Positions 12,198 through 39,111 are shown, counted from the first letter of the stretch. The stretch is DNA of 64,000 bases from Alphaproteobacteria bacterium (GCA_024275895.1 JAJRYE010000006.1:26139-90138), one strand, 5' to 3'. Program-made: numbers and translations. Notes: generated by a model not told the origin, from the sequence alone.

Positions 12198-12258
12198 CAA
12201 TTTAAACAGAACACCCTACGGAGTGCTCAGGTCCGCCGCATCTCCTGGGTCCGTGGGG
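12198..12258 (-). terminator. Rho-independent terminator of the ubiE-menA-BASS operon
   Basis: On the minus strand: CCCCACGGA...TCCGTAGGG stem with inner CCCAGG/CCTGAG pairing, followed by TGTTCTGTTTAAATT. Confidence 0.5.
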
Positions 12259-12321
12259 TCGGTCGGCTCGAGAGTGGCGGCAGTGGCCTCCTCGACAATC
12301 GTTACTCTCGACCGACCACCA

Positions 12322-13215
12322 TTATTGCAGCGCCCGTCCGCGTTGCAGCATGAGCATTATGAACAGGGCGGCGCTGATATTCATGACCAGCGCATAGGAA
12401 ATGCTCGGGATCATCATATCCGCGTTTTTGAGCAATGTAAGAGCGACGAAAATACCCATGGCTCCGTTCTGCAAGCCGCTTTCAAGCGCGATGGCGGTTA
12501 TCTGGCGCGATGGAAATCCGGACAGTTTAGCAGTGAAAAAACTCAGCAGCATAATCCCGCCATTGAGCAGGATAATGACCGGCCCGATCACGTTTAAATT
12601 CAGCATCATAACGTCCCATTGACTGGCAAAAGCGCCAATAACGATCAAAATGAAAATTCCTGTTGAGATGGGCCGGGCGTAACGGGCAAGGGCGGCGGCA
12701 AGCTGCGGCCAGCGGTGATTGAGCGCCATCCCCAGTACAACCGGTGCGGTCGAGACCGCTAAAACCCCGGCCATCAGTTTCCATACCGGCAAATCCTGCA
12801 ACTGACGCGCATCGGTGAAAAAAATCAGGGCCAGATTGACAACCAGCGGCACGCTCACGACCCCGGCCATGGAGGAAATGGCGGTAAGGCTGATGGAAAG
12901 CGCCGTGTCGCCGCGGGCAAAATGGGTCAGGAGGTTTGAGGTGATACCCCCGGGGCAGGCAGCGAGGATCATGATTCCCACGGCCAGCGCCGGGGGGAGC
13001 GGCCAGATGAGAAGAAGGGTAAAGGCGAGGGCGGGAAGGGCGATGATCTGGAAAAAAAGGCCCAGTATCAGGGCGCCGGGATGCCTGAAAACGGCCTTGA
13101 AATCAGGCAGCCGCAGGCTCAGCCCCAGTGAGGCCATGATGAAAGCCAGCCCGAGGGGAAGGAGCAGTTTTTCGATCATCGGGGTGTTCGTTCCACGTTG
13201 CGACCTAAAAAACAA
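12322..13215 (-). CDS. Bile acid:sodium symporter (BASS) family transporter
   Basis: About 9-10 TM helices with the BASS signature LAACPGGITSNLLTHFARGDTALS. The start overlaps the menA stop by 11 nt. Confidence 0.85.
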   Translation of the reverse strand: MFFRSQRGTNTPMIEKLLLPLGLAFIMASLGLSLRLPDFKAVFRHPGALILGLFFQIIALPALAFTLLLIWPLPPALAVGIMILAACPGGITSNLLTHFARGDTALSISLTAISSMAGVVSVPLVVNLALIFFTDARQLQDLPVWKLMAGVLAVSTAPVVLGMALNHRWPQLAAALARYARPISTGIFILIVIGAFASQWDVMMLNLNVIGPVIILLNGGIMLLSFFTAKLSGFPSRQITAIALESGLQNGAMGIFVALTLLKNADMMIPSISYALVMNISAALFIMLMLQRGRALQ

Positions 13216-14119
13216 TCAGGCCAAGAGACAAGAGCGCCGCAAAAACCAGTTGCAGCTGGGCGGTCTGCACCAGGAGCTGGTTATATGCCGCGCCCACGGC
13301 TCTGGAGAAGCGCCAAGCCAGCATGGCGGCAAGTGGAAAGCTGAGAAACGGGAGCCATAAACGGCCCGTTTCGGAAAAGAAAAAAGCTGTCAGGCCGAGC
13401 AGAATATAGGGCGTAAAAACCAGCAGGATATAAATCCGCACTGTCGGGCGGCGACCGCAGAGAATAGCCAGGGTTTTTCGCCCCGAAAGCTTGTCTTCGC
13501 GCCGGTCGCGCAAGTTGTTGGTCAACAAGACAGCGGCGGCAAAAGCGCCCAGCGCCGCACCGATAACAATGGCGCCGGGCGAGATATAACCGGCCTGAAG
13601 GTAATAGCTTCCCGCCGTGGCGGCGATACCGAAGAACGCGATCACGAATACCTCGCCCAGCGGCGAGTGGGAAATCGGCCGCGGTCCGGTGGAATAGGCA
13701 TAGCCAGAAAGAATGGAAATACTGCCCAGCAGGAGAATCGGCCAGCCGCCGATCCATGAAAGCCACAAGCCCAGAATGGCGGCCAGAAGAAACGAGAACA
13801 GGGAGGCGGTTTTGATCTGGCCGCAGCTTAACAGTCCCATGGCGCTCATGCGGGGTGGGCCGAGACGTTCGGGGCTGTCATTCCCGGTCTGGAAATCCGC
13901 GGCGTCATTGTAAAGATTGGTTCCGGCCTGAATGAGCATGCTGGCGGCCAGAACAGCCAGCATGACGCCGTAACTGAGCTGGCCCTGGGCCTGCCAGGCG
14001 AGGGCGGTTCCGGTAAACACCGGCACAACCGCCATGCTCAGGGTTTTGGGCCGTATAGCGGCCAGCCACAGGCGGACCGTGGATGAAGGGGCGCGAATGG
14101 TGCGCTCGGATAGGGTCAC
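13205..14119 (-). CDS. menA: 1,4-dihydroxy-2-naphthoate polyprenyltransferase
   Basis: UbiA-superfamily membrane protein with MenA-type motifs: RPKTLSMAVVPV, NLYNDAADFQTGNDSPERLGPPR, YSTGPRPISHSPLGEVFVIAFFG, NNLRDRREDKLSGRKTLAI. Confidence 0.88.
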   Translation of the reverse strand: MTLSERTIRAPSSTVRLWLAAIRPKTLSMAVVPVFTGTALAWQAQGQLSYGVMLAVLAASMLIQAGTNLYNDAADFQTGNDSPERLGPPRMSAMGLLSCGQIKTASLFSFLLAAILGLWLSWIGGWPILLLGSISILSGYAYSTGPRPISHSPLGEVFVIAFFGIAATAGSYYLQAGYISPGAIVIGAALGAFAAAVLLTNNLRDRREDKLSGRKTLAILCGRRPTVRIYILLVFTPYILLGLTAFFFSETGRLWLPFLSFPLAAMLAWRFSRAVGAAYNQLLVQTAQLQLVFAALLSLGLIVF

Positions 14120-14874
14120 GGACTCACTCCTTCAGACATTCCCGGTTTGACGCCGTAGTGAATACAGGCAATGCCGAATGACAGGTTCCTGTAGCCCACA
14201 TTTTGAAATCCGGCCTCTTCTAGCAGGCGCTTGACGGCGTTTTGTCCCGGAAAGCGGCGGATTGATTCGATCAGATACTGGTAAGCCATGGGTTCTTTTG
14301 CCACAAACGCCCCCAGTCTTGGAATAACGAAATAGGAATAAAAATCATAAAACGGCCGCAGCCAGAAAACCGGTCTTGAAAATTCCAGGCAGACAAAACG
14401 GCCACCGGGTTTGAGCACGCGCACGCATTCGCGCAATGAAGCTTCCGGCCGCGTCATATTGCGCAATCCAAAAGCGATGGTGATGATGTCAATCGATTCG
14501 CCGCGCACAGGCAGCGCCTCACCCTCCGCCGCGAGCCAGTCCAGCGTCGGTTCATCTGATGAATTAACGGGTTTTCCAGCCCGCATCATGGCCTCGCTGG
14601 CGTCGCAAACAATGACATGAGAGCCCTTCACCCGCGCCATAAGCCGCGCCACATCGCCGGTGCCGCCGGCAAGATCAAGAATTCTGGAGCTGTCACCAGG
14701 GGTGAGAAACCGGATCATGCGCCGCTTCCATAACCGGTGAATGCCAAAACTCATGAGATCATTCATAAGATCATATCTTGGCGCTACCGCATTGAATACA
14801 TGGCGGATACGTCTTTGGCGCTCAAAGGTTTCAACATCCTCGAAACCAAATGACTTATGGAATTTGTTTTGCAT
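14116..14874 (-). CDS. ubiE: Demethylmenaquinone / ubiquinone C-methyltransferase
   Basis: HVFNAVAPRYDLMNDLMSFGIHRLWKR, SAM motif ILDLAGGTGD, ITIAFGLRNM, LKPGGRFVCLEFS, YQYLIESIRRFP. Stop overlaps the menA start (4 nt). ATG 14874 is preferred to 14952. Confidence 0.88.
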   Translation of the reverse strand: MQNKFHKSFGFEDVETFERQRRIRHVFNAVAPRYDLMNDLMSFGIHRLWKRRMIRFLTPGDSSRILDLAGGTGDVARLMARVKGSHVIVCDASEAMMRAGKPVNSSDEPTLDWLAAEGEALPVRGESIDIITIAFGLRNMTRPEASLRECVRVLKPGGRFVCLEFSRPVFWLRPFYDFYSYFVIPRLGAFVAKEPMAYQYLIESIRRFPGQNAVKRLLEEAGFQNVGYRNLSFGIACIHYGVKPGMSEGVSP

Positions 14875-15088
14875 GTAACGGCTTTGGTCCCGTTTTTTTG
14901 TACATTGGCAAGCCAGAACTTGAGTGACCCTAGTGCCTTGTAGATGAGACAAAGATAATAAAAGTCAATACAGCCGATTTTGATCGCCGTGCCAGTCAAA
15001 GGGATATACCGGCTGAAATGATATTGCGAATTAGCCGCAAGTCAAGCAGCAGGCTTGACAAATTGTCACAGCACATTGATGTGCAGAA

Positions 15089-15102: not shown

Positions 15103-15184
15103 GGTCGCGTCTCAAGCATCCGTGCTCTTTTTCACGGGACTTGCCGGGCTTCTGGGCCTGGCGGGACCCTGATGGAGCGTCTTG

Positions 15185-15682
15185 ATGCACGACAGCTTGA
15201 GCCGGCGGCAGATACTGACAGCGAAATTTAGACCGCTGCCAGGTATTTTGCGTCCGCCATGGGCGGTGGAGGGGTTTGAGGCAAAATGCGATGCCTGCGG
15301 GGATTGCATCCGGGCCTGTCCACGAAAAATTCTGCGTGCTGACGGGGGCGGGCTTCCGGCTATCGATTTTTCCCGTACCGGCTGTGATTTTTGCGCCGAA
15401 TGTGCCAAATCCTGTGAAAGCGGCGCGATCCGCCAATCCGGCACAGCTTGGTCTCTGGATGTGCGCGTTCTTGGCCGCTGTCTGGCGGTTCAGGGCACGG
15501 TCTGCCGTTCCTGCGAGGAAAACTGCGAGGAAGCGGCGATCCGTTTCCGTCTTGGGCTGAACGGAAAATCCTGGCCCGTGATCGACGCGGATGAATGCAG
15601 CGGCTGCGGCTTTTGCCTGGCCCCGTGCCCGACAGGGGCAATCGCAATTGAAGTCAAACACATGGAGGAAGCGCAGGCATGA
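15185..15682 (+). CDS. napF: Ferredoxin-type protein NapF
   Basis: N-terminal Tat-like SRRQIL and Cys clusters (CDACGDCIRACP, CDFCAECAKSC, CRSCEENC, CSGCGFCLAPCP). First gene of the nap cluster. Confidence 0.85.
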   Translation: MHDSLSRRQILTAKFRPLPGILRPPWAVEGFEAKCDACGDCIRACPRKILRADGGGLPAIDFSRTGCDFCAECAKSCESGAIRQSGTAWSLDVRVLGRCLAVQGTVCRSCEENCEEAAIRFRLGLNGKSWPVIDADECSGCGFCLAPCPTGAIAIEVKHMEEAQA

Positions 15683-15906
15683 GTATCTGCTCACTGGTGG
15701 TCTATTCGAAACCGGAAAACGTACCCATGGTTGAAAAACAGATTTCTGCCCTGGAGGGTGTCGAGATCAATGCCGATTCCGGCGATGGTCGGCTGGTTGT
15801 CTCCATCGACCATCCCGACCGCACACATTGCAGCAAAATGATTATGGATATGAGCGCAATGAAGGGCGTTCTGAATACCTCACTGATTTATGAGTACTAC
15901 GAATAA
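15679..15906 (+). CDS. napD: NapA chaperone NapD
   Basis: 75 aa. [19 protein letters not shown]......GRLVVSID pattern, located between napF and napA. Start overlaps the napF stop. Confidence 0.85.
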
Positions 15907-15943
15907 AGCGAACTTGGTCAAAACGGAGAAGGAGGAAAGAGTG

Positions 15944-18508
15944 ATGTCAGTTTCACGTCGTGATTTCATTAAGGCGAATGCAGTAGCAGCGGCCGCTGCG
16001 GCTGCGGGTGTAACTCTGCCGGGCGCCGGCAAGGCGCTGGCGGCAGGCGATGACGGTATCCGCTGGGATAAAACCGCCTGCCGCTTCTGCGGCACGGGCT
16101 GTTCCGTGCTGGTGGGGGTCAAGGATGGCCGTGTTGTCGCCACCCAGGGCGATCCCGATGCGCCGGTCAATCGCGGCCTCAACTGCATCAAGGGCTACTT
16201 CCTGACCAAAGTCATGTATGGCAAGGACCGCCTCACCAAACCCCTGCTGCGCAAAACCAATGGCAAATACGACAAGAACGGCGCCTTTACCGAGGTCAGC
16301 TGGGACGAAGCCTTCAAGACCATGGCGGAAAAATGGATTGCGGCGCGCAAGGCCAAGGGCCCCAAGGGAATCGGCATGTTTGGTTCGGGTCAGTGGACGA
16401 TCTGGGAAGGCTACGCTGCCCAGAAGCTTCTTAAAGCCGGTTTCCGTTCCAATTCGCTTGAACCCAATGCGCGCCATTGCATGGCCTCCGCCGTGGGCGC
16501 TTTCATGCGCGCCTTTGGCATTGATGAGCCGATGGGCTGTTATGATGATCTGGAGCTTTCCGACACATTTGTGCTCTGGGGCTCCAATATGGCCGAGATG
16601 CATCCCATTTTGTGGTCGCGCCTGACCAATACGCGTCTGACCAAGAAGGGCTGCGAGGTTCATGTGCTCTCGACTTTTGAGCACAGATGCTATGAGCTGG
16701 CAGATAATGCCATCACATTCCACCCGCAAACCGATCTGGCGATCGCCAATTATATCGCCAACTACATCATCACCAACAAGGCCTATAACAAGGAATTCGT
16801 CGAGAAGCATTGCAACTTCAAGAAAACCCCGACCGATATCGGCTATGGCCTGCGCGCCAGTGATCCGCGCGAAAAAGCGGCCAAAAACCGCAACAAGGGC
16901 AAGCTTTCTAGCATTACCTTTGAAGAATATGCCGCTTCGGTCGCGCCTTATACGCTTGAAAAAGCCTCCGAGCTTTCCGGCGTTCCGGCCGAGAAGCTGG
17001 AACGGCTTGCCAAGGTCTATGCCGATCCCAAACGCAAGGTGGTCTCCTACTGGACAATGGGCTTCAACCAGCACACGCGCGGCGTGTGGGTAAACGGACT
17101 TGTCTATAATATCCACCTTCTGATGGGTAAAATCTCCGAGCCCGGCAATGGTCCGTTCTCGTTGACCGGTCAGCCTTCGGCCTGTGGTACGGCGCGCGAA
17201 GTGGGCACATTCACCCATCGTCTGCCGGCGGATTATGTGACCAAGAAAGACGCCCATTGCAAATTTGCCGAAAAGATCTGGAAACTCCCCGCCGGAACCA
17301 TTCCAAGAGCCAATGGCAAGACGGACAAGGCCGATCAGAGCGATATCAGCGGCAAGCCGATGGGCAAGACCCTGATCCATGCGGTGGCCATGCACCGGGC
17401 GCTGCATGACGGCAAGATGAACTGCTTCTGGGTGATGTGTAACAACAACATGCAGGCGGCCGCCAATATGAACGATGAGAGCTATCCCGGCTGGCGGCGC
17501 GAGGAGAATTTCATCACCGTGTCCGATCCTTATCCCACGGTTTCGGCCATGGCGGCGGATCTTATTCTTCCCACCGCCATGTGGGCGGAAAAAGAAGGCG
17601 GCTACGGCAATTCCGAGCGCCGTTCGCAGTTCTGGCGTCAGCAGGTCAAGGCGCCGGGCGAGTCCCATTCCGATCTTTGGCAGGTCATGGAGTTCGCCAA
17701 ATACGTCAAGGTCAAGGATGTGTGGCCCGAGGATCTCATTGCCAAACAGCCCGAGGTTGCCGACAAGACCCTCTATGACGTTCTTTATGCTAATGGTCAG
17801 GTCGACAAGTTCCCGAAAGTCCAGGTTGTGGATGAGGCGGGCAACAAATATGACAACGACGAATCCGAATATTTCGGCTTCTATGTCCAGAAGGGCCTGT
17901 TCGAGGAATATCGCCGCTTCCAGTTCGAGGGCAAGAAAATTGGTCACGAAATGGCGCCTTACGATGACTACCACAAGGCCCGCGGCATTCGCTGGCCGTT
18001 CATCGACGGCAAGGAAACCCTGTGGCGTTACCGGGAAGGTTATGACCCGCATGTCAAGAAAGGCCAGGGCGTCTATTTCTATGGCAAGCCCGATGGCAAG
18101 GCGAATATCATCACCGCGCCCTATGAGCCTGCTGCCGAAGTGCCGGATGACGAGTATAATCTGTGGCTGTGTACCGGCCGTGTACTTGAGCACTGGCATT
18201 CCGGTTCCATGACCCGCCGCGTGCCGGAGCTTTACCGCGCCGTGCCTGATGCGCTTGTTTACATGAACAAGAAAGACGCCAGGAAGCGCCGGTTGCGTGA
18301 TGGTGCCAAGGTGAAGATTATCACCCGCCGCGGTGAAATTGTCACCCGTGTCTCGACCCGTGGCCGCAATAAACCGCCGCAGGGGTTGATCTTTGTACCC
18401 TGGTTTGATGCTTCCCGTCTTGTCAACAAGCTGACCCTTGACCAGACGGATCCGCTTTCGAAGGAAACGGATTACAAGAAGCAGGCCTGCAAGGTGGTCA
18501 AGGCCTGA
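15944..18508 (+). CDS. napA: Periplasmic nitrate reductase catalytic subunit
   Basis: Tat signal [22 protein letters not shown] after a GGAGGA RBS. 4Fe-4S motif [10 protein letters not shown] and molybdopterin-oxidoreductase body through to the C-terminus. ATG 15944 is preferred to 15890. Confidence 0.95.
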
Positions 18509-18596
18509 CCGATCGAAAACCTCCGGCGGCGCGAGCGATCCGCCGCCGGTTATTTTCTCTTTGAACCAAGCTCCCGTGCCGGGAGTTAAAAACTGG

Positions 18597-19523
18597 ATGC
18601 AGCACAGGTTTATGTCTGAAAAAGCCGGACATACGTTCAAGGCGTCGAAGCCGCGCAAGCTCAGCCGCCGCAAGTTCCTGACCGATATAGCCAGGACGGC
18701 CTGCGGGGTCGGCTTTTTCGGCCTTGGGGTCGGCATATATTCAAAGCCGGCCAGCTCGTTGCCCGCACTGGCGTTAAGGCCGCCCGGCGCCCTGCCGGAA
18801 GAGGCGTTTCTGGCCGCGTGCACAAGGTGCGGGCTGTGTGTGCGCGATTGCCCCTATGATATTTTAAAACTGGCCGAACTGGGCGCCGATAATGTGGCCA
18901 CGGGCACGCCGTATTTTACCGCCCGGACCGGGCCTTGCGAGATGTGCGAGGATATCCCCTGCGTCCCGGTATGCCCGACAGGGGCGCTTTCGCATGAGTT
19001 GACCGATATCAACAAGTCACGCATGGGGCTTGCGGTTCTGGTCGATCAGGAATCCTGCATTGCCTTTTTGGGCCTGCGCTGCGAGGTTTGCTTCAATGTC
19101 TGCCCGGTGCGTGATCAGGCGATCAGGATTGAACCACGGCCCAATCTTCGCTCCGGTCATCACGCCTTGTTTATTCCGGTAGTCTATTCTGAAGCCTGCA
19201 CCGGCTGCGGCTTATGCGAAAAAGCCTGTATTCTGGAAGAGGCGGCGATCAAGGTCCTGCCGATGCGCGTCGCCAGGGGGGAACTCGGGCAGCATTACCG
19301 GCTGGGCTGGGAGCAAAAGGACAAGGCCGGCGGCAGTCTGGTTGCGCCGGATACGGAACATAAATTCAATCTGCCCGAAGGCGTAAAATATGACTATTAC
19401 GGGCGCGGGCTTGTCGATGAACGCGGCGCCGCCATAACAATGCCGGGAACCGGGGAGGCCGCCACGCCGTTTTCCAGTAACCCGCTCGATACGCTCAATC
19501 GCGGCATCAGGGAGGCGAAATAA
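18597..19523 (+). CDS. napG: Periplasmic ferredoxin-type quinol dehydrogenase subunit NapG
   Basis: Tat motif SRRKFLTDIARTA and four Fe-S cluster motifs (CTRCGLCVRDCP, CEMCEDIPCVPVCP, CEVCFNVCP, CTGCGLCEKAC). Start could be 18597 or 18612; the ORF-track start 18438 lies inside napA. Confidence 0.88.
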   Translation: MQHRFMSEKAGHTFKASKPRKLSRRKFLTDIARTACGVGFFGLGVGIYSKPASSLPALALRPPGALPEEAFLAACTRCGLCVRDCPYDILKLAELGADNVATGTPYFTARTGPCEMCEDIPCVPVCPTGALSHELTDINKSRMGLAVLVDQESCIAFLGLRCEVCFNVCPVRDQAIRIEPRPNLRSGHHALFIPVVYSEACTGCGLCEKACILEEAAIKVLPMRVARGELGQHYRLGWEQKDKAGGSLVAPDTEHKFNLPEGVKYDYYGRGLVDERGAAITMPGTGEAATPFSSNPLDTLNRGIREAK

Positions 19524-20446
19524 TGATTACGCCTCTGGATCAGCTTGGACGCGAAGCGATTGCCAAAAGGGGCTGGTTTGCGGCCCATAAATGGTTGCTG
19601 CTGCGGCGGTTGTCGCAAATGTCTGTTTTCGCCCTGTTTCTGCTCGGCCCGATTGCCGGGATATGGATTATCAAGGGAAACCTCTCCTCCAGCTTGTTGT
19701 TTGACGTGGTTCCCATGACTGACCCGCTGCTGTTCCTGCAGATACTGAGCGCCGGGTTTACCGGCATTGCTTCTGCCGCCGTCATCGGCGCGGCGCTGGT
19801 GCTGGTGTTTTACCTTGTCGTCGGCGGGCGTGTCTATTGCTCCTGGGTCTGCCCGGTCAATATCGTCACTGATACCGCCAATTGGCTGCGCCGCAGGCTG
19901 AATATCAAATCCTCGGCGAAAATCAGCGTCAATGCGCGCTACTGGATGTTGGCCCTGACCCTGGTGCTCTCTTTTAGCACCGGCACCTTGGCCTATGAGC
20001 TGGTGAATCCGGTCTCCATGCTGCATCGAGGCCTGATCTTCGGGATGGGCTTTGGCTGGACCATTGTTCTGGGGGTGTTTTTGTTTGATCTTCTGATCAT
20101 GAAGCACGGCTGGTGCGGGCATTTATGTCCCATGGGCGCATTTTACGGAATCCTGGGCAATTCCGCTTTTGTCCGGGTGCGGGCCGACCGGCGCGCCGAT
20201 TGCGATGATTGTATGGAATGCTATGAGGTTTGCCCCGAACCCCAGGTGCTTCCCCCCGCCCTGAAGGGTGAGCAAAAAGGACTTGCTCCTGTGATCCTGT
20301 CCGGCGACTGCACCAATTGCGGGCGTTGCGTGGATATTTGCGGCGAGGATGTGTTTGATTTTGGCCTGCGTATCGGCCGGATATCTGGAGTTGGTAAAGT
20401 TGACGGCGCCCCGCGCGCCGTTTCAGGGCACGAGAGTGCATCCTGA
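19523..20446 (+). CDS. napH: Membrane quinol dehydrogenase subunit NapH
   Basis: Four TM helices, CSWVCP and CGHLCPMGAFYG motifs, and a C-terminal 2x[4Fe-4S] (CDDCMECYEVCP, CTNCGRCVDIC). Confidence 0.88.
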   Translation: MITPLDQLGREAIAKRGWFAAHKWLLLRRLSQMSVFALFLLGPIAGIWIIKGNLSSSLLFDVVPMTDPLLFLQILSAGFTGIASAAVIGAALVLVFYLVVGGRVYCSWVCPVNIVTDTANWLRRRLNIKSSAKISVNARYWMLALTLVLSFSTGTLAYELVNPVSMLHRGLIFGMGFGWTIVLGVFLFDLLIMKHGWCGHLCPMGAFYGILGNSAFVRVRADRRADCDDCMECYEVCPEPQVLPPALKGEQKGLAPVILSGDCTNCGRCVDICGEDVFDFGLRIGRISGVGKVDGAPRAVSGHESAS

Positions 20447-20507
20447 AGAGTTAAGTTTGTTTTGTAGGATCAACCTGAACCTGACGTTCATCATGATGGA
20501 GGTGGAA

Positions 20508-20927
20508 ATGAGAACACTATTTCTGACACTGATTGCCGGGGCTTTTGCGGCTCTGACATTTACCGCAGCGGCCAATGCCGATGTTACTTCCCTGCGCGGT
20601 GCCAACAAGCTGGAGGCTCCCGCAAAAATGTTTGAAAAGAAACGGGTAGAGACGGTGACCGGCGGCATCAAGCGCAGCTGGAAACTGCAACCCCCGTCAA
20701 TCCCGCACAAGATCGGCAAGGAAAGGATCAATCTGGAAGCGAATACCTGCCTGCGCTGTCACGGGGCGGAATTTTATAAAAAAGAAAAAGCGCCGGAGAT
20801 TGGCCTTTCGCATTTCGTCGATGCCGCCGGCAAGAAACAGGAAACCTTGAATATGCGGCGCTATTTCTGCACCCAGTGCCACACGACCCAGGTGGGTGCC
20901 AAACCGCTCGTGCCAAATACATTTTAG
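20508..20927 (+). CDS. napB: Dihaem cytochrome c NapB
   Basis: Signal peptide MRTLFLTLIAGAFAALTFTAAANA after a GGAGG RBS, and two haem motifs CLRCH and CTQCH. ATG 20508 is preferred to 20349. Confidence 0.9.
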   Translation: MRTLFLTLIAGAFAALTFTAAANADVTSLRGANKLEAPAKMFEKKRVETVTGGIKRSWKLQPPSIPHKIGKERINLEANTCLRCHGAEFYKKEKAPEIGLSHFVDAAGKKQETLNMRRYFCTQCHTTQVGAKPLVPNTF

Positions 20928-21062
20928 GGCGCGGGTGACGTGAAACCGGCAGTCGGATGACTGTCATAACGGCCAGAGTGTGAAAAGCTTCCGGACCATT
21001 CTTCGCAGCAAGCGGGATGGTGCGGGGGCGTTTCCGGCGCTGGTCTTCAGGGGATAAGATAA

Positions 21063-21701
21063 ATGAGTAAAAACAAGCAGGGCGGCTTTATCAAGCGCCT
21101 CTGGAGAGGATTTTGGGGACCGAGCGCCCGTTACGGCTTCGGGGCCATTTTGATTTCCGGTTTTATCATCGGCGTTGCGTTCTGGGGCGGCTTCAACTGG
21201 ACCCTGGCACTCACCAATACGGAAACCTTTTGTATATCCTGTCATGAAATGAAGGATAATGTGTACGAGGAGTACAAGGAGACGATTCATTTCACCAACC
21301 GGACCGGGGTTCGCGCCACTTGCCCTGATTGCCATGTGCCCAGAGAATGGGTTCACAAGATCGTCCGCAAGGTCAAGGCCACAAAGGAGTTGTATCACAA
21401 GATACTGGGTACCATCGATACCAAGGAGAAGTTCAGGAATAACCGTCTCTGGATGGCGAAAAGCGAATGGACACGGATGAAAGCCACCGATTCGCGCGAA
21501 TGCCGCAATTGCCATAATTTCGGCTCCATGGATCTGGAAAAACAGGAAGAGCGGGCCTCCGACAAGCATGACCCCTTTGTCTGGGAGGTTCTTGACGGCA
21601 AGGAGCCGACGAAAACCTGCATCGATTGCCATATGGGGATTGCTCATAAGCTGGCCAAAGGCTGGGAAAAAGCCGCCAAGGAAGTGGGACTTGGCGAATA
21701 A
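21063..21701 (+). CDS. napC: Tetrahaem cytochrome c quinol dehydrogenase NapC (NapC/NirT family)
   Basis: N-terminal TM anchor and four CxxCH motifs (CISCH, CPDCH, CRNCH, CIDCH). Confidence 0.92.
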   Translation: MSKNKQGGFIKRLWRGFWGPSARYGFGAILISGFIIGVAFWGGFNWTLALTNTETFCISCHEMKDNVYEEYKETIHFTNRTGVRATCPDCHVPREWVHKIVRKVKATKELYHKILGTIDTKEKFRNNRLWMAKSEWTRMKATDSRECRNCHNFGSMDLEKQEERASDKHDPFVWEVLDGKEPTKTCIDCHMGIAHKLAKGWEKAAKEVGLGE

Positions 21702-21959: not shown

Positions 21960-22676
21960 ATGAAAAGAAAGCATTTTGAACTGCTTAAAAAACTGCCGCT
22001 TTTTGTTGGTCTTGAAGAAAAACGCATCCAGGAAATTATTGGAACGGCGCAGCCTTGCGAGTTTCCGCGCGGCAAGATAATTTTCCAGCAAGGCGATCCG
22101 GCGGACTGGTTTTACGTTATTTTACAAGGCTGGGTTAAGGTATTCCGGGTCTCCGAAGAAGGTAATGAAGCGGTGCTTGGCGTATTTTCAAGAGGCGATA
22201 CGGTCGCCGATGCCGCTATGTTTATCGGCAAGCGCTATCCGGCCAGCGCCCAGATTGTCGCCGAGGCGACCTTGCTGCGCATTGACGGGGTGCGCTTGCG
22301 CCAGAGCATTCACGACGACTCGGAAATTGCGTTTTCGCTGCTGGCCTCCATGTCGCATCATATGAAAAACCTGACCGATCAGGTTGCCCAGATGAAGCTT
22401 TATCACGGCCCCGAACGCGTCGCCCTGTTCCTTTTACGCCTTTGCCCCCTGCCGGAAGGGCCGGCGGTAATTTCCCTTCCCTATGAAAAATCGCTGGTCG
22501 CCGCCCGGCTCGGGATGCAGCCTGAAAGCCTGTCGCGGGCGCTGAGCAAACTGCGCGATATCGGCGTTACGGTGAATCAGGGCCATGTTGTTGTCAATGA
22601 TGTTGCCAAACTGGCCAAATTCGTCAATGCCGATCCGGTTCACTCCATAAAGAACGGCAGGGGCGGGCGCGCCTGA
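21960..22676 (+). CDS. Crp/Fnr-family transcriptional regulator (Dnr/FixK-like, no N-terminal Cys cluster)
   Basis: cNMP-binding-like fold (LFVGLEEKRIQEI...GDPADWFYVILQGWVKV) and a C-terminal HTH with the FNR-type recognition motif GMQPESLSRALSKL (E-x-x-S-R). Confidence 0.85.
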   Translation: MKRKHFELLKKLPLFVGLEEKRIQEIIGTAQPCEFPRGKIIFQQGDPADWFYVILQGWVKVFRVSEEGNEAVLGVFSRGDTVADAAMFIGKRYPASAQIVAEATLLRIDGVRLRQSIHDDSEIAFSLLASMSHHMKNLTDQVAQMKLYHGPERVALFLLRLCPLPEGPAVISLPYEKSLVAARLGMQPESLSRALSKLRDIGVTVNQGHVVVNDVAKLAKFVNADPVHSIKNGRGGRA

Positions 22677-22804: not shown

Positions 22805-25069
22805 ATGCGCCGTCCGCTGTTGTGGCTTTTTGCCCTGAGTTTATTTATAGTGATTCCAGACAAGCCGGTGATGGCCAGCGAGAAATCCTCCACAATGAAC
22901 CGATTAGCCAATGAAGCCTCGCCCTATCTGCGCCAGCATGCGGAAAATCCCGTGGACTGGTATCCGTGGGGGGAAGAGGCACTGGCCAGGGCAAAGGCCG
23001 AGAACAAGCCGATTTTCCTCTCAGTTGGCTATTCGACCTGTCACTGGTGCCATGTGATGAAGCGTGAAAGCTTTGAGAATGAGGCCATTGCCGCGATCCT
23101 CAACACATATTTTATCGCCATCAAGGTTGACCGGGAAAGCCGCCCCGATATTGACGAAATTTACATGCTGGCAACCCAGCTTCTGACCAAAAGCGGCGGC
23201 TGGCCGAACTCGGTATTTCTCACCCCCAAAGGCGAGCCGTTTTACGCCGGCACATATTTTCCGCCGGATATGTTTACAAAAATTCTCAAGGCGGTCGCGC
23301 GCGAGTGGAAGTCCAACCGGCCGGAACTTGAACAAAGCGCAGCCCGCCTGGCGACGATCATCCGCGATTACACCCAGTCGGTCAGCAAGGCGGCAAAGCT
23401 GACCCCGGATGTCTTTACCAAGGCAAATGAAGCGATTTACCAGACCCATGACGAATTTCTCGGCGGCTTCAGCGAGGCGCCCAAATTCCCGCAGGAGCCG
23501 GTTTTGCTTTATCTTTTGCATATGGCGGCAAAGGGGGGGGAGGCCAAATATCTTGATGCCGCGACCCTTTCCCTCGACGCCATAGCCCGGGGCGGGATCA
23601 CCGATCAGGTTGGTGGCGGTTTTCACCGTTATTCGGTCGATAATGCCTGGCTGGTGCCGCATTTTGAAAAGATGCTCTATAATCAGGCGCAGCTCGTGCG
23701 CGCCTATGTCCAGGCCCACGCCCTGACCGGACGGCGCGATTTCGCCCGCACGGCGCGCCATGCCATTGACTATGTCCTTGCCGATTTGCGCGCCCCTTCG
23801 GGCGGGTTTTACTCGGCCCGCGATGCCGATAGCGAGGAGGAGGAGGGCAAATTTTACATCTGGACAAAGGAGCAACTGACCGCGGCCCTGGGCAAGGCAG
23901 ATGCCGGGTTTGTTGTTGAGGTTTTCGGAGTTACCGAGACTGGGAATTTTGAAGGCGCCAATATCCTTCACCTTGAAAAAAGCCTTGCTGAATGGGCGCG
24001 GGAAAAAGGCATGACAACGGCGCAGTTCGTTGAAAAAACTGATAAAATACTTAGCCGCCTGAATTTGGCCAGAGCCGGGCGCATCCCGCCGCACCGGGAT
24101 GAAAAAATCATCACCTCCTGGAACGGCATGATGATCACGGCCCTTGCCGAGGCCGGGGATATCCTGAATGAAAAAGCCTATATCATGGCCGCCGGCAAGG
24201 CGGCGCGGATGATCTGGGATAAAATGCACAAGGGAAACGGCGCGCTCTGGCGGGTGTATTTTGATGGCGGCCTGAGCGTTGATGGCCAACAGGAAGATTA
24301 TGCCTATCTGGCGCAGGGGCTGATCGCTCTTTTTGACGCTACGGGTGACGGCGAATGGCTGAAAAAGGCCGAGTTTGTCACGGCGGCCATGATCGAGCGG
24401 TTTGCCGACCCCAAAGCCGGTGATTTTTTCATGATCGAAAAAACCGGCAAGATGGGGCGGCCGAAACTGAAGAATGACGGCGCTACAGCCTCGGGCAATT
24501 CGGTTGCGCTGGATGTTCTGGGCAAATTGTCGCGGCGCTCGGAAAATCCTGATTTCGATATGCGCGCGCGCGCCCTGCTGGCGGCGCTGTCGGGCCTTCT
24601 GGTCGCCTCGCCAGAGGGGCATGCCTATGCGCTGCGCGCCGCTGAAGCCTTGCTCTACGGCGAGGCCGGGCCGGTGCAATATGCCGGTAACGGCGTTTTG
24701 CGGGCCCGGGCGGTTATGGGCAGGAAAAAGGTTGAAATTCATATCGAGGTGAAAGAGGGCTGGCATATCAACGCCAACAAACCCCTTGAGCCAGACTTCA
24801 TTCCAACCAAATTAAACTATGAGGCCCCCGAGGGCTGGAAACTGGGCGATGTACTTTACCCCAAAGCTGTCGTGCGGGTGTTGCGGTTCAATGATAATCC
24901 TATGGCGCTATATGAAGGGGAGGTTGTTTTGAATATGCCTGTCGTTGAGCGGGACAAGAGCGGCGCAAGCCCCGTGCATCTGAAACTTCAGGTTCAGATA
25001 TGCAGCGACAAAATCTGCCTTGAGCCGGAAACACTGTCGTTATATCTGCCCGTTCCGGACCGGGACTAG
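22805..25069 (+). CDS. Secreted thioredoxin-domain protein (DUF255/YyaL-like) with (alpha/alpha)6-like body and C-terminal DsbD-N-like domain
   Basis: Signal peptide [24 protein letters not shown]. Motifs [65 protein letters not shown]-terminal [10 protein letters not shown]...[14 protein letters not shown]. Confidence 0.8.
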
Positions 25070-35783: not shown

Positions 35784-37564
35784 GCGGGCCCGCGGCTTTT
35801 CTTGGCGTTGAAAACTCCTTGAGCGGGCGCTTCTGGCAAAGCCGCATCGAGCACGATGCCCAGGCGCTGGCGATTTCCCAGAAGCTGGGCGTGGCCGATC
35901 TTGTGGGCAGGGTTCTGGCCGGGCGCGGCGTCGATGCCGATCACGCGGCTGATTTTTTAAATCCCACTTTAAGGGCCTATCTGCGCGATCCTTATGTTTT
36001 GCACGATATGGAGCGCGCCGCCAAGCGCATCGCCGATGCCATCATCAAGGGCGAGGCTATCACCATCTTTGGCGATTATGATGTCGATGGCGCAACATCC
36101 TCGGCGCTTTTGCGGCGCTTTTTTGCCCATCTTGGCGTTCAGGCGCGGGTCTATATTCCCGACAGGATGAAGGAGGGTTACGGCCCCAGTTCGCAAGCCT
36201 TCGCGCGGATTATCGATGCCGGGGCCAAACTGATCATCACCGTGGATTGCGGCACCGCTTCTTTTGAGCCTATAGTGCAGGCCGCCGAATCGGGCGTTGA
36301 TGTTGTAGTGCTCGACCATCATATTGCCGGTGAGGCGCTTCCTGAAGCCTTCGCGCTGGTCAACCCCAACCGGCAGGATGATGTCAGCGGTTTTGACCAG
36401 CTTGCCGCGGTGGGGGTCACCTTCATGCTGCTCGTCGCTCTCAACCGGCTGTTGCGTAAAAACGGGGTTTATGGTGACAAGTGCCCCGAGCCCGACCTGC
36501 TGCAATGGCTCGATCTGGTGGCTCTGGGCACGGTTTGCGATGTTGTGCCCTTAAAAGGCCTTAACCGCGCCTTTGCGGCGCAAGGTTTGAAGGTGCTGGC
36601 CAGGGGGCAAAACACCGGGCTGGCGGCGCTGGCCGAGGCGGCGCAGATCAGCGCGCCCATAGACGCCTATCATCTGGGCTTTGTGCTGGGACCGCGCATC
36701 AACGCCGCCGGGCGCATTGGCAAGGCGGGGCTTGGTTCGGAACTTTTGTCGATTGATGACGCGGTACTGGCGGCGAAGATTTCGGCGCGGCTTGACAATC
36801 TCAATGCCGAGCGCAAGCTGATTGAAGACAAGGTTGTGGAAGAGGCGCTGTTGCAGGCGGAAGATTTGCTGCAAGGCAAAACTGATCCGGATATTCTCAT
36901 CGTTGCCAAAAAAAACTGGCACCCCGGCGTGATCGGCATTGCCGCCAGCCGGTTGAAGTCGCGCTTCAACCGCCCCTCGATTGTTATCGCGCTGGATGAG
37001 GCCGGTGAGGGCAAGGGCTCGGGCCGCTCGATTGAAGGGGTTGATCTTGGCGCGGCGATCACGCAGGCGGCGGCCAGGGAGCTTATCCTCAAGGGCGGGG
37101 GTCATAAAATGGCCGGCGGCCTCAGCCTCACCGCCGGACAGATACCGGGTTTTGCCGCTTTCATGCAAGACGCCCTGGGACCTGATATCCGCACCGCCCG
37201 CACCCGCCATGTGCTCAAGCTTGACGGCGCCATAACCGCGCGCGGCGCCAATGCCGGGCTGGTCAGGGCGCTGGAAATGGCCGGGCCCTTCGGCGCGGGC
37301 AACGCCAGACCCCGTCTTGTTCTGCCCGCCCATCATGTTGCCTTTGCCGATATTGTCGGCAAGGACCATGTGCGCTGCACGTTAAAAGCCGCCGATGGCG
37401 CCCGATTGCAGGGAATCGCCTTTCGCGCCGCGGAATCGCAATGGGGCAAATACCTGCTGAACGAGCGCCAGATGCCGCTGCATATCGCCGGATCATTGAA
37501 GATCGATCACTGGCAGGGGCGCGAACAAATCAAACTTCATATCGAGGATGCCGCTCTGGCGTAA
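35780..37564 (+). CDS. recJ: Single-stranded-DNA-specific exonuclease RecJ
   Basis: DHH motifs ([24 protein letters not shown]) and DHHA1 ([10 protein letters not shown]). Start overlaps the glpX stop (ATGA). Confidence 0.93.
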
Positions 37565-37630
37565 ATCTTCATTTCGCCCTCTTGCATTGGCGTTCTTATC
37601 GCCTTATAAGCGGCCCAGACCAAATCTCGT

Positions 37631-37705
37631 GGTCCCTTCGTCTATCGGTTAGGACGCCAGGTTTTCAACCTGGAAAGAGGGGTTCGATTCCCCTAGGGAC
37701 TACCA
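37631..37705 (+). tRNA. tRNA-Glu (anticodon UUC)
   Basis: 75-nt cloverleaf folded by hand: acceptor GGTCCCT/AGGGACT (G1-U72), anticodon arm CCAGG-TTTTCAA-CCTGG, T arm AGGGG-TTCGATT-CCCCT, encoded ACCA end. Confidence 0.9.
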
Positions 37706-37896
37706 TTTTCCTTCCATCGCTGCATGCAAGAAGCCGCCGGCCGGGTTTTATCGGTGCGGCGCGGTTTTTTCTGTCCATGTTTCTCTGGCGGGTGCGACAT
37801 TCCGCCATGTATTTACGCTTGCAAAAACTACGTAAATATACGTATATTGCATCTACAAAAAACGCTGTCCAACATGTAGCTGTAAGGTGGGGAAAC

Positions 37897-39111
37897 ATGC
37901 CTGATTATGATGCCGTTCTTGAATCTGCTCTGGATACAATCAAAACGGAAGGCCGGTACCGGGTTTTTGCCGATATCCGCCGCAAGCGGGGCGAGTTTCC
38001 AAGGGCGACCTATTACGGCGGCGATGAGCCGCGCGAAATCACCGTCTGGTGCTCCAATGACTATCTCGCCATGGGGCAGCACCCCGATGTGCTGAAAGCC
38101 ATGCACGAGGCGATAGACACAACCGGTTCAGGCTCGGGCGGCACCCGAAATATTGCCGGTACAACCCATTATCATGTCCAGCTTGAGAAGGAGTTGGCCG
38201 ATCTGCACGCCAAGGAGGCGGCCTTGCTGTTTACCTCGGGCTATATCGCCAATGACGCCACCTTGAGCACCATGGCCAAGCTGTTCCCTGACTGTATCAT
38301 TCTCTCCGACGCCAAAAACCACGCCTCGATGATCGAGGGCATTCGCCGCGGCCGCGGGCCAAAGCGCATCTGGCGTCATAATGATCTTGAAGACCTTGAG
38401 CGCCAGTTGCAGGAAATCGATCCGGATCATCCCAAGATTATTGCCTTTGAGTCGGTATATTCCATGGACGGTGATATTGCCCCCATCGCCAGAATTTGCG
38501 ATCTGGCGGACAAGTACAATGCCCTGACCTATCTTGATGAAGTCCACGCGGTTGGCCTTTACGGTAACAGGGGCGGCGGTATTGCCGACCGCGACGGTGT
38601 TCTGGACCGGGTGGATATCATTGAAGGCACCCTTGCCAAGGGGTTTGGCATGATGGGTGGATATATTGCTGCCTCGAAAGCCATGGTGGACGCGGTGCGT
38701 TCCTATGCGCCGGGCTTCATCTTCACCACCTCGATTGCCCCGGCCATTGTCGCGGGCGCCCTGGCCAGCGTGCGGCACCTCAAAAAGAGCCATTTGGAGC
38801 GCGAGGCGCATCAGGAACGCGCCGCCGAGCTGAAAAGACGCCTCAGGGAAGCCAGTCTGCCGGTTATGGACAGCCCGTCCCATGTGGTGCCGGTCATGAT
38901 CGGTGATCCGGTGCTGTGCAAGCAACTGACCGATGCCCTGATGGATGAGTATGACATTTACGTCCAGCCCATCAATTATCCCACCGTCGCCAAGGGCACC
39001 GAGCGTATCCGCCTGACCCCGGGGCCGAAGCATTCGGACGCCGATATGGATCATCTGATCACGGCGCTTGATGCGCTGTGGCGCGCCCTTGCCCTTGAGC
39101 GCGCCGCGTGA
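37897..39111 (+). CDS. hemA: 5-aminolevulinate synthase
   Basis: [73 protein letters not shown]. The ORF-track start 37441 runs through tRNA-Glu and is rejected. Confidence 0.93.

Follow-up and report, generated by a model that had tools for sequence, protein, structure and literature searches.

How does a bacterium from a class that typically uses ubiquinone come to carry the last enzymes of menaquinone synthesis chained to a carboxylate-type transporter, and what might such a combination be for? The question is raised by a stretch of 64,000 nucleotides (nt) of DNA from an Alphaproteobacteria bacterium (GCA_024275895.1 JAJRYE010000006.1:26139-90138), hereafter called the window, whose minus strand carries a paralogue of ubiE/menG, a menA gene and a gene for a transporter of the BASS/SBF family. 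A reading made from the sequence alone had taken these for a salvage module, in which the transporter imports 1,4-dihydroxy-2-naphthoate (DHNA) or a related naphthoate and the two enzymes convert it to menaquinone for anaerobic nitrate respiration. We find that the three genes are indeed a functional unit, whose linkage is kept in 39 species-level genomes and whose linked transporters fall into a single clade. That the unit supplies a naphthoquinone for the respiration of N-oxides we regard as probable. On a fuller interpretation it is a self-contained menaquinone-finishing unit, taking an imported DHNA head group and providing a low-potential naphthoquinone for anaerobic N-oxide respiration; for this our belief and our doubt are about equally weighted.

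The three-gene unit

ORF calling finds three open reading frames (ORFs) running in the same direction in this part of the window (14116-14952, 13205-14119 and 12322-13215), and all three products have strong family matches; thus the proposed chain of minus-strand genes is real. The ubiE ORF can be extended mechanically to a TTG at 14952, and the product that begins at the ATG at 14874, of 252 amino acids (aa), fits the 247-250 aa of its relatives. The sharing of 4 nt between this gene and menA is confirmed, the sequence GTGA at 14116-14119 being common to the ubiE stop codon and the GTG start codon of menA.

The second boundary is a little different from what had been supposed. An overlap of 11 nt between menA and the transporter gene at 13205-13215 requires the mechanical TTG start at 13215. 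The database copy of the transporter (P0001, 100% identity, 285 aa) begins at the ATG at 13179, and the lengths of its homologues are all in the range 284-297 aa. This ATG is most likely the start codon, and the two genes would therefore be separated by a gap of 25 nt. The same spacing is found in a relative that is 74% identical (locus L001; other loci are designated similarly below), and in further relatives the genes are separated by 2 nt or share 4 nt. Thus the close chaining of menA and transporter stands, and it is the 11-nt overlap that falls. With a common direction, overlapping or nearly abutting boundaries, and an order that is kept in 35 genomes, the three genes have the properties expected of a single operon.

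Conservation of the linkage

How widely is the arrangement distributed? An alignment of 40 homologues of the transporter was scanned against one genome per GTDB species, giving 80 loci of 42-92% identity. Neighbouring genes were located by tblastn with the window proteins, and gene calling in relative loci of high G+C content was conservation-based. At 39 of the 80 loci the distance between MenA and the transporter is no more than 6 kb, and at 35 of the 80 MenA is immediately upstream and co-directional, less than 200 nt away. The UbiE paralogue is also present at 34 loci. The association of this transporter clade with menA in other genomes, to which the sequence-only reading had looked for support, is thus strongly positive, and the lack of linkage that would have told against its proposal is clearly not what is found.

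In a neighbour-joining (NJ) tree the menA-linked transporters form one clade, with the exception of a single long-branched Sulfuritalea sequence, and the unlinked transporters fall into two other clades. The same subgroups come out of the trees of MenA and of the transporter, so that the pair is inherited as a unit. The carriers are mainly Hyphomicrobiales and Rhodospirillales, with a few Beta- and Gammaproteobacteria, and those in culture include Magnetospirillum species, Thermopetrobacter, Roseospirillum and Roseospira. Among the carriers are M. gryphiswaldense MSR-1, M. moscoviense BB-1, Magnetospirillum sp. UT-4 and LM-5, Thermopetrobacter TC1, Roseospirillum parvum 930I and Roseospira marina DSM 15113. 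The transporter also stands beside menA where no nos or nap genes are nearby (L065, L067 and L075); since the pair persists without them, menA and the transporter make up the constant core. The plasmid collection contains no close homologue, its best match reaching 40% identity, and thus offers no evidence of a plasmid-borne unit. A full-text literature search found no paper in which nos or nap clusters are connected with menA, ubiE or BASS genes. We therefore class ubiE-menA-BASS as a previously undescribed, widely conserved combination, and not as a new kind of system.

Three loci in this sample are assigned to other phyla: L027 (a Bacteroidota metagenome-assembled genome (MAG)), L029 (a Stygiobacter MAG) and L071 (a Solirubrobacterales MAG). 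Their nos-ubiE-menA-BASS blocks and flanks have nearly the same gene order as in Magnetospirillum, and they cluster with Magnetospirillum in the trees. These are probably mis-binned Magnetospirillum-like contigs, and are not evidence for the unit in those phyla.

The prenyltransferase and the methyltransferase

The strong MenA call of the sequence-only reading holds up well. The RPKTL motif together with NLYNDAADFQTGND and NNLRDRREDKLSGRKTL are all present in the translation, and the protein passes the TIGR00751 model (151.5 bits against a cutoff of 102.15) and matches PF01040 (1.5e-32, 113 against 34). Both of the Asp-rich motifs of UbiA type are present (N-LYND-AADFQ and NNLRDRREDK), and align with those of UBIAD1, which is the best relative of solved structure (8djk, 1.4e-21). 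The protein passes none of the NCBIfam PRK06080 equivalog cutoffs, the best score being 238 against 264. A prenyltransferase of the futalosine type was considered and rejected; there is no UbiD/UbiX-like decarboxylase or mqn gene nearby, and the classical MenA model is passed.

The closest MenA proteins found outside the unit are ~49% identical to that of the window. All three that were sampled (from Sedimenticola, Thiohalobacter and one 3.6-Mb contig; L091-L093) are encoded in menF-menD-(menH)-menB-menA-menC-thioesterase operons that lack a BASS gene. In the NJ tree these men-operon proteins interleave inside the family of the window MenA, and do not lie far outside it. Because relatives of ~49% identity sit in full men operons, the comparison supports classical DHNA as the probable aromatic substrate of the window enzyme. 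It also shows a complementary pattern, in which MenA has for its neighbours either the DHNA-making enzymes or the transporter; since the three outside menA genes lie in men operons without BASS, the transporter would seem to take the place of the genes for making DHNA.

The methyltransferase is clearly a member of the UbiE family (PF01209, 5.8e-73; TIGR01934, 254.5 bits against a cutoff of 158), and the motif LDLAGGTGD that binds S-adenosylmethionine is present in the translation. Its score falls short of the cutoff of NF001242, the equivalog of the housekeeping UbiE (270 against 351), and this would fit an extra paralogue; the copy in Magnetospirillum gryphiswaldense MSR-1 is annotated ubiE_1. 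It also matches the methyl-plastoquinone enzyme MpqE with 223 bits, below the cutoff of 335.

A further protein is found beside menA in some genomes. A COQ10-like START/polyketide-cyclase protein adjoins menA in L084 (10874-11365), L074 (4100-4621) and L075 (8395-9033), and in the men operon of Thiohalobacter the same family is found upstream of menF (L092, 1514-1963). This distribution suggests that it may be a quinone-binding helper of the menaquinone pathway.

The transporter

The third protein matches the SBF family (PF01758, 1.9e-32, 112.9 bits against a gathering threshold of 24.3), and aligns with the structures of ASBT_NM (3zux and 3zuy; 2.7e-29) with an identity of roughly 30% to 3zux. 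The alignment begins at residue 40 of ASBT in 3zuy. Thus the first helix of ASBT_NM is absent, implying nine transmembrane helices. The sodium sites are intact. The ligands of Na1 are conserved as S81, N82, S95, T99 and E233 (S114, N115, S128, T132 and E260 in ASBT_NM), and those of Na2 as Q44, E233 and Q237 (Q77, E260 and Q264). E233, Q237, N82 and T99 are invariant among the 40 homologues. The conservation of these side-chain ligands is consistent with the role of a Na+-driven importer.

What would be imported is less easily read from the family. Known substrates of BASS proteins include bile acids, pantoate, pyruvate and glycolate, and to our knowledge no member carries a naphthoate. The window protein is below the subfamily cutoffs of both TIGR00841 ('bass'; 175.8 against 326.3) and PanS (NF047939; 94.4 against 400), and so is not to be filed as either a bile-acid or a pantoate transporter.

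Nitrate and nitrous oxide reductase clusters

Divergent from ubiE in the window is a periplasmic nitrate reductase cluster (Table 1). The Pfam basis for its assignment comes from the syntenic loci L001 and L004 (NapD, Molybdopterin, NapB, Cytochrom_NNT and Fer4), with identities of 79-98%. In the window this cluster is the presumed consumer of the quinol. The sequence-only reading had described the operon as back-to-back with nap. The placement itself is correct, yet it occurs in the window lineage only (the window, L009, L001 and L004), and the general partner is a nosZ-nosG-nosH cluster. An interpretation of the unit as nap-specific was therefore rejected. NosG/H-like genes are present in 23 of the 39 menA-linked loci, and given that nos is the general partner this becomes mainly a story about how nitrous oxide (N2O) is reduced.

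The nos clusters contain nosZ, genes for two c-type cytochromes, an unassigned protein, nosD, nosG, nosH, nosF, a nosL-like gene and nosY. The unit joins them in three ways. In Magnetospirillum it is directly 3′ of nosY, with overlapping gene boundaries. In several Hyphomicrobiales it forms a senC/SCO1-ubiE-menA-BASS operon that is divergent from nosZ. In the third arrangement the transporter gene follows nosY, and menA-ubiE converge upon it. Thus with the position beside nap, the pairing of menA and transporter survives four architectures. The N-termini of the NosZ proteins have no twin-arginine motif, indicating that they are of the Sec-type, clade II-like form.

In one lineage a gene for an outer-membrane channel of the FadL/TodX family (family f52), a type that passes hydrophobic compounds, is divergent from ubiE-menA-BASS (L018, 6723-7982; L038, 6614-7975; L021, 281-1552; and L022), and the intergenic region shared by the two has an FNR-like box with one mismatch in L021 and L038. 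Such a channel fits an importer role for the adjacent unit. Between nosY and the FadL-ubiE-menA-BASS group of L018 (2921-5393) and L038 (2827-5343) there are genes for a cytochrome b561-type protein, a multihaem cytochrome c (Cytochrome_cB) and PPK2.

Anaerobic regulation

Is the unit expressed when an N-oxide reductase is required? A perfect FNR/Crp-type palindrome is located in the intergenic region between ubiE and napF (Table 1). It is kept in the same region of L001, L004 and L009, and L019, L024 and L025 have equivalent perfect boxes in their nosZ/senC-ubiE intergenic regions. This conservation within a shared intergenic region supports the co-regulation of ubiE-menA-BASS with nap. A Crp/Fnr-family regulator encoded after napC is a candidate reader of the box, and a Crp-family gene also adjoins the unit in L005 and L012.

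Published data are available for one of the carriers. In M. gryphiswaldense MSR-1 (L089; CP027527.1, 806922-827809) the order nosZ-cytC-cytC-x-nosD-nosG-nosH-nosF-nosL-like-nosY-ubiE-menA-BASS forms one co-directional block, and the published gene order corresponds to it gene for gene. Judging by this order, the menA and BASS genes would be MSR1_08230 and MSR1_08240. By RNA-seq, MSR1_08220 (ubiE_1), which follows the nosY-type gene MSR1_08210, was increased with a log2 fold change of 5.2 (37-fold) under anoxic compared with oxic conditions, placing it among the 41 genes most induced by anoxia alongside the nos genes MSR1_08120-08210 (PMC9549626, Table S3). In the same table the values are 5.09 for nosZ, 6.84 for nosD and 6.47 for the NosG-type gene (PMC9549626, Table S3); the induction of ubiE_1 drew no comment from the authors (PMC9549626). 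In this strain nosZ is controlled by an Fnr protein (PMC4065386). MSR-1 in pure culture has very little N2O reductase activity, its production of N2O being 20-fold faster than that of N2 (PMC4065386), which is compatible with the lack of an externally supplied precursor. The supplements of transposon studies in MSR-1 and AMB-1 have no men, naphthoate or futalosine entries, and are uninformative either way.

Source of the head group

The interpretation that we favour may be set out as a series of steps. Through the Na+-coupled BASS protein the cell would take up an aromatic carboxylate as head group, most likely DHNA set free by neighbours that produce menaquinone. MenA would decarboxylate this and couple it to a polyprenyl diphosphate drawn from the ubiquinone pathway, and the UbiE paralogue would methylate the resulting demethylmenaquinone to menaquinone. 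The menaquinol would then be oxidised by NapC/NapGH in the window organism and by NosGH in most carriers, feeding nitrate reductase or N2O reductase, respectively.

Three considerations lead to the import of DHNA. The unit is exactly what a bacterium having only ubiquinone would require if it were given an external head group; a genome that has a complete men pathway would have no need of it; and the transporter sits where the nearest relatives have their DHNA-making genes. Both halves of such an exchange are established, since quinone auxotrophs use exogenous DHNA and producers release it (PMC10746273). The sequence-only reading had noted that no menFDHCEB or mqn gene lies within the 64 kb, and this is upheld. 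Pfam scans of the major ORFs of the window found no men or mqn family, and tblastn with the Sedimenticola MenF, MenD, MenB, MenC and MenE proteins found nothing there. In the 39 genomes with the linkage, menF/D/H/C/E/B and mqnA-D are missing from both flanks of the unit over distances of up to 10 kb, or to the end of the contig where that comes sooner, and none of the linked loci has an orthologue of Sedimenticola MenF, MenD or MenB.

A number of points weigh against this interpretation. The absence of these genes covers the window and the flanks of the unit, and a men or futalosine pathway may be encoded elsewhere in the genomes of the carriers. Roseospirillum parvum and Roseospira marina, which have the unit (L067 and L074), presumably contain menaquinone in defined media, and this would imply synthesis of DHNA de novo in these organisms. 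Since the transporter reaches neither the 'bass' nor the PanS cutoff of NCBIfam, its function is not transferable by homology. A specificity-position analysis finds only three alignment positions (G10, V142 and M191) that split the menA-linked from the unlinked clade transporters, so that the sequences show no sign of a special pocket for DHNA or another naphthoate. Moreover, close unlinked relatives occur in MAGs of Sedimenticola type, and it is in this group that a complete men operon was observed; taken with the small number of positions that separate linked from unlinked proteins, this indicates that the substrate may be a general one. Unlinked members of the clade are in housekeeping contexts (AFG1 ATPase, ArsR and HemE), which give no clue to a substrate. 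We know of no transporter by which DHNA enters the Gram-positive auxotrophs. E. coli NapGH works with ubiquinol, so that the present NapGH and NosGH proteins need not depend on menaquinol. Lastly, pure cultures of MSR-1 are able to form some N2 (PMC4065386).

In the main alternative, DHNA is made de novo from genes elsewhere in the genome. In that case ubiE and menA would simply encode late steps that are induced anaerobically and located next to the enzymes that use the product, and the BASS protein would carry another anion (pantoate, pyruvate, glycolate or some other carboxylate) or have a housekeeping role. The men/mqn absence, which covers the window and the flanks within 10 kb, would allow it, and in its favour are linked and unlinked clade transporters that are nearly indistinguishable at conserved sites, together with the housekeeping neighbours of the unlinked ones. 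It is also in keeping with the location of menA in E. coli, apart from the other men genes, with the reduction of some N2O by MSR-1 in pure culture, and with the presence of the unit in the phototrophs Roseospira and Roseospirillum, which we take to contain menaquinone. Yet it leaves a good deal unexplained. The transporter has remained tied to menA through four rearrangements, including loci where neither nos nor nap is present (L067, L065 and L075), and the MenA and BASS trees match; the MenAs in full men operons have no transporter beside them (three of three sampled); a FadL-type uptake channel has joined the unit; and a men pathway of the cell's own would already supply menA and ubiE, making the extra copies redundant. 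We judge this alternative to be rather unlikely.

An alternative of another kind accepts the import and changes the product. A different aromatic acid would be taken up, prenylated and methylated to give a prenylquinone other than menaquinone, that is, a new low-potential quinone or a bound cofactor of NapGH and NosGH. The scores of MenA below every PRK06080 equivalog cutoff (best 238 against 264) and the sub-cutoff match of UbiE to MpqE (223 bits against 335) lend this some encouragement, and the probable substrate of MenA comes from sequence comparison. Set against these are the passing of TIGR00751, the ~49% identity to men-operon MenAs that interleave with it in the NJ tree, and two catalytic Asp motifs that are entirely standard. 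We consider such a product improbable. Finally, that three unrelated genes merely happen to lie between pleD and nap could be entertained from the synteny of the whole region in the window lineage, where simple inheritance would suffice on that evidence alone, but is refuted by linkage in 39 species-level genomes of three proteobacterial classes, with varied flanks and a single monophyletic transporter clade (NJ; one long branch apart), and has next to no probability.

Returning to DHNA import, the most far-reaching form of that interpretation is that the BASS protein is the first DHNA importer, and that the reduction of nitrate, and above all of N2O, by systems of NosGH/NapGH type in proteobacteria for which ubiquinone is typical, M. 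gryphiswaldense among them, depends on a precursor of vitamin K cross-fed by neighbours that make menaquinone. This we offer tentatively, placing it somewhat short of an even chance. A full-text literature search revealed no paper naming a DHNA importer in any organism.

Flanking features

The features of the unit and its surroundings are collected in Table 1.

Table 1. Positions of the unit and flanking features in the window
Feature	Position	Strand	Description
EcpR1 (Atu_C6, RF02500) small RNA gene	12211..12322	+	95.2 bits against gathering threshold of 60; model positions 1-113 of 113
BASS/SBF-family Na+-coupled transporter	12322..13179	-	285 aa; ATG at 13179
menA	13205..14119	-	1,4-dihydroxy-2-naphthoate polyprenyltransferase type, UbiA family; 304 aa; GTG start
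ubiE/menG paralogue	14116..14874	-	S-adenosylmethionine-dependent C-methyltransferase; 252 aa; ATG at 14874
Sigma-70-like promoter candidate for ubiE-menA-BASS	15018..15045	-	TTGACT-16-TATCAT; 10/12 consensus matches; consensus match only
FNR/Crp-type palindrome TTGATATTTATCAA	15089..15102	.	Divergent ubiE/napF intergenic region; sole perfect TTGAT-N4-ATCAA in 64 kb
napF-napD-napA-napG-napH-napB-napC	15182..21701	+	Periplasmic nitrate reductase with NapGH and NapC quinol dehydrogenases; divergent from ubiE
Crp/Fnr-family regulator	21960..22676	+	After napC; cNMP_binding and HTH_Crp_2 in 96-100% identical orthologues

At its 3′ end the unit meets a gene for the small RNA EcpR1, and here the earlier account has to be revised. 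A hairpin and U-tract at 12198-12258 had been taken as the terminator of the operon; the structured stretch is the EcpR1 gene on the opposite strand. This gene is convergent with that of the transporter, its 3′ end abutting the transporter stop codon, and is just downstream of divK-pleD. It is kept at the same place in L001 (10871-10982), L003 (3137-3248) and L004 (8863-8973). In Sinorhizobium EcpR1 reportedly regulates cell-cycle mRNAs, and is said to adjoin divK-pleD there too. There is no convincing T-tract terminator after the transporter gene, the site at 12228-12209 having a poor T-tract. Terminator-like sites are not enriched compared with shuffled sequence (8 found against 5.5 ± 2.1), and a fold z-score of -1.37 gives no independent support for a terminator. 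The 3′ stem of EcpR1 might terminate transcription in both directions, and EcpR1 itself is not part of the quinone unit.

Three further observations concern the other side of the unit. A 956-aa ORF on the minus strand at 15953-18823 is antisense to napA and napG, and is almost certainly a spurious shadow of the coding strand. Directly after the Crp/Fnr regulator, the plus strand at 22805-25069 encodes a 754-aa protein that joins a DUF255 thioredoxin domain to a GlcNAc-2-epimerase-like region, with a DsbD_N-like domain at its C-terminus; this could be a redox-maturation factor for the periplasmic reductase. At 37441-39111 the mechanical ORF of a 556-aa aminotransferase has a tRNA-Glu(TTC) within its 5′ part (37631-37705). 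Its Pfam match begins at residue 199, and thus the true start of the aminotransferase lies after the tRNA.

Significance and relation to known systems

N2O reductase is the only biological sink for N2O, which is a major greenhouse gas. For the Sec-type, clade II-like NosZ in classes of ubiquinone type, the conserved unit points to menaquinol as the source of electrons. If the transporter imports the head group, these organisms would depend on an external precursor, and this could explain weak N2O reduction in pure culture (PMC4065386). If that were true, the strength of the N2O sink would be set in part by the supply of DHNA within the community. A DHNA transporter in the BASS family would matter both for the cross-feeding of quinones in microbiomes and for the synthesis of phylloquinone in plants. 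Plant plastids hold several BASS proteins, and we know of no DHNA carrier there; the family would become the prime candidate for it. M. gryphiswaldense MSR-1 is a genetically tractable carrier of the unit in which the idea is directly testable.

How does the unit compare with systems that are already known? The quinone auxotrophs are the nearest in terms of function. Streptococcus agalactiae reportedly salvages DHNA with the late steps alone. Lactiplantibacillus plantarum similarly has a partial pathway, comprising MenA with or without the methyltransferase, and makes (demethyl)menaquinone from the DHNA of its neighbours (PMC10746273). These auxotrophs are fermenting Gram-positive bacteria that make no quinone themselves and are not known to have a DHNA transporter. 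In contrast the carriers of the unit are proteobacteria from classes in which ubiquinone is typical, and here the transporter is chained to menA, the whole is attached to nap or nos, and salvage is what we infer.

In terms of sequence the closest system is the classical men operon of Sedimenticola, Thiohalobacter and related Gammaproteobacteria (L091-L093), which has the nearest MenA outside the unit and, like it, can be accompanied by a START/COQ10-like gene. There MenA lies among the DHNA-making enzymes with no BASS gene; in the unit its neighbours are UbiE and BASS, and the surrounding 10 kb contain no men gene.

The transporter shares the SBF fold and the Na1 and Na2 ligands with ASBT_NM (3zux and 3zuy), ASBT_Yf (4n7w), PanS and the plant proteins BASS2 and BASS6, the characterised members of which carry organic carboxylates. 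It is set apart from them by its distance in sequence from 3zux, the missing first helix and its scores beneath the TIGR00841 and PanS cutoffs.

For the consumers, the closest parallels are the clade II nos cluster of the Wolinella succinogenes type, with NosGH, and the NapC and NapGH proteins of E. coli. W. succinogenes is a menaquinone organism in which NosGH is thought to oxidise menaquinol, and E. coli NapC uses menaquinol. The features in common are the Fe-S quinol dehydrogenases of NosG/NosH or NapG/NapH type, the two c-type cytochromes and the Sec-type signal peptide of NosZ. In the Wolinella and E. coli systems the menaquinone comes from a complete pathway encoded elsewhere, whereas in the lineages described here, for which ubiquinone is typical, the genes for finishing the quinone, together with a transporter, are built into the reductase cluster or placed beside it.

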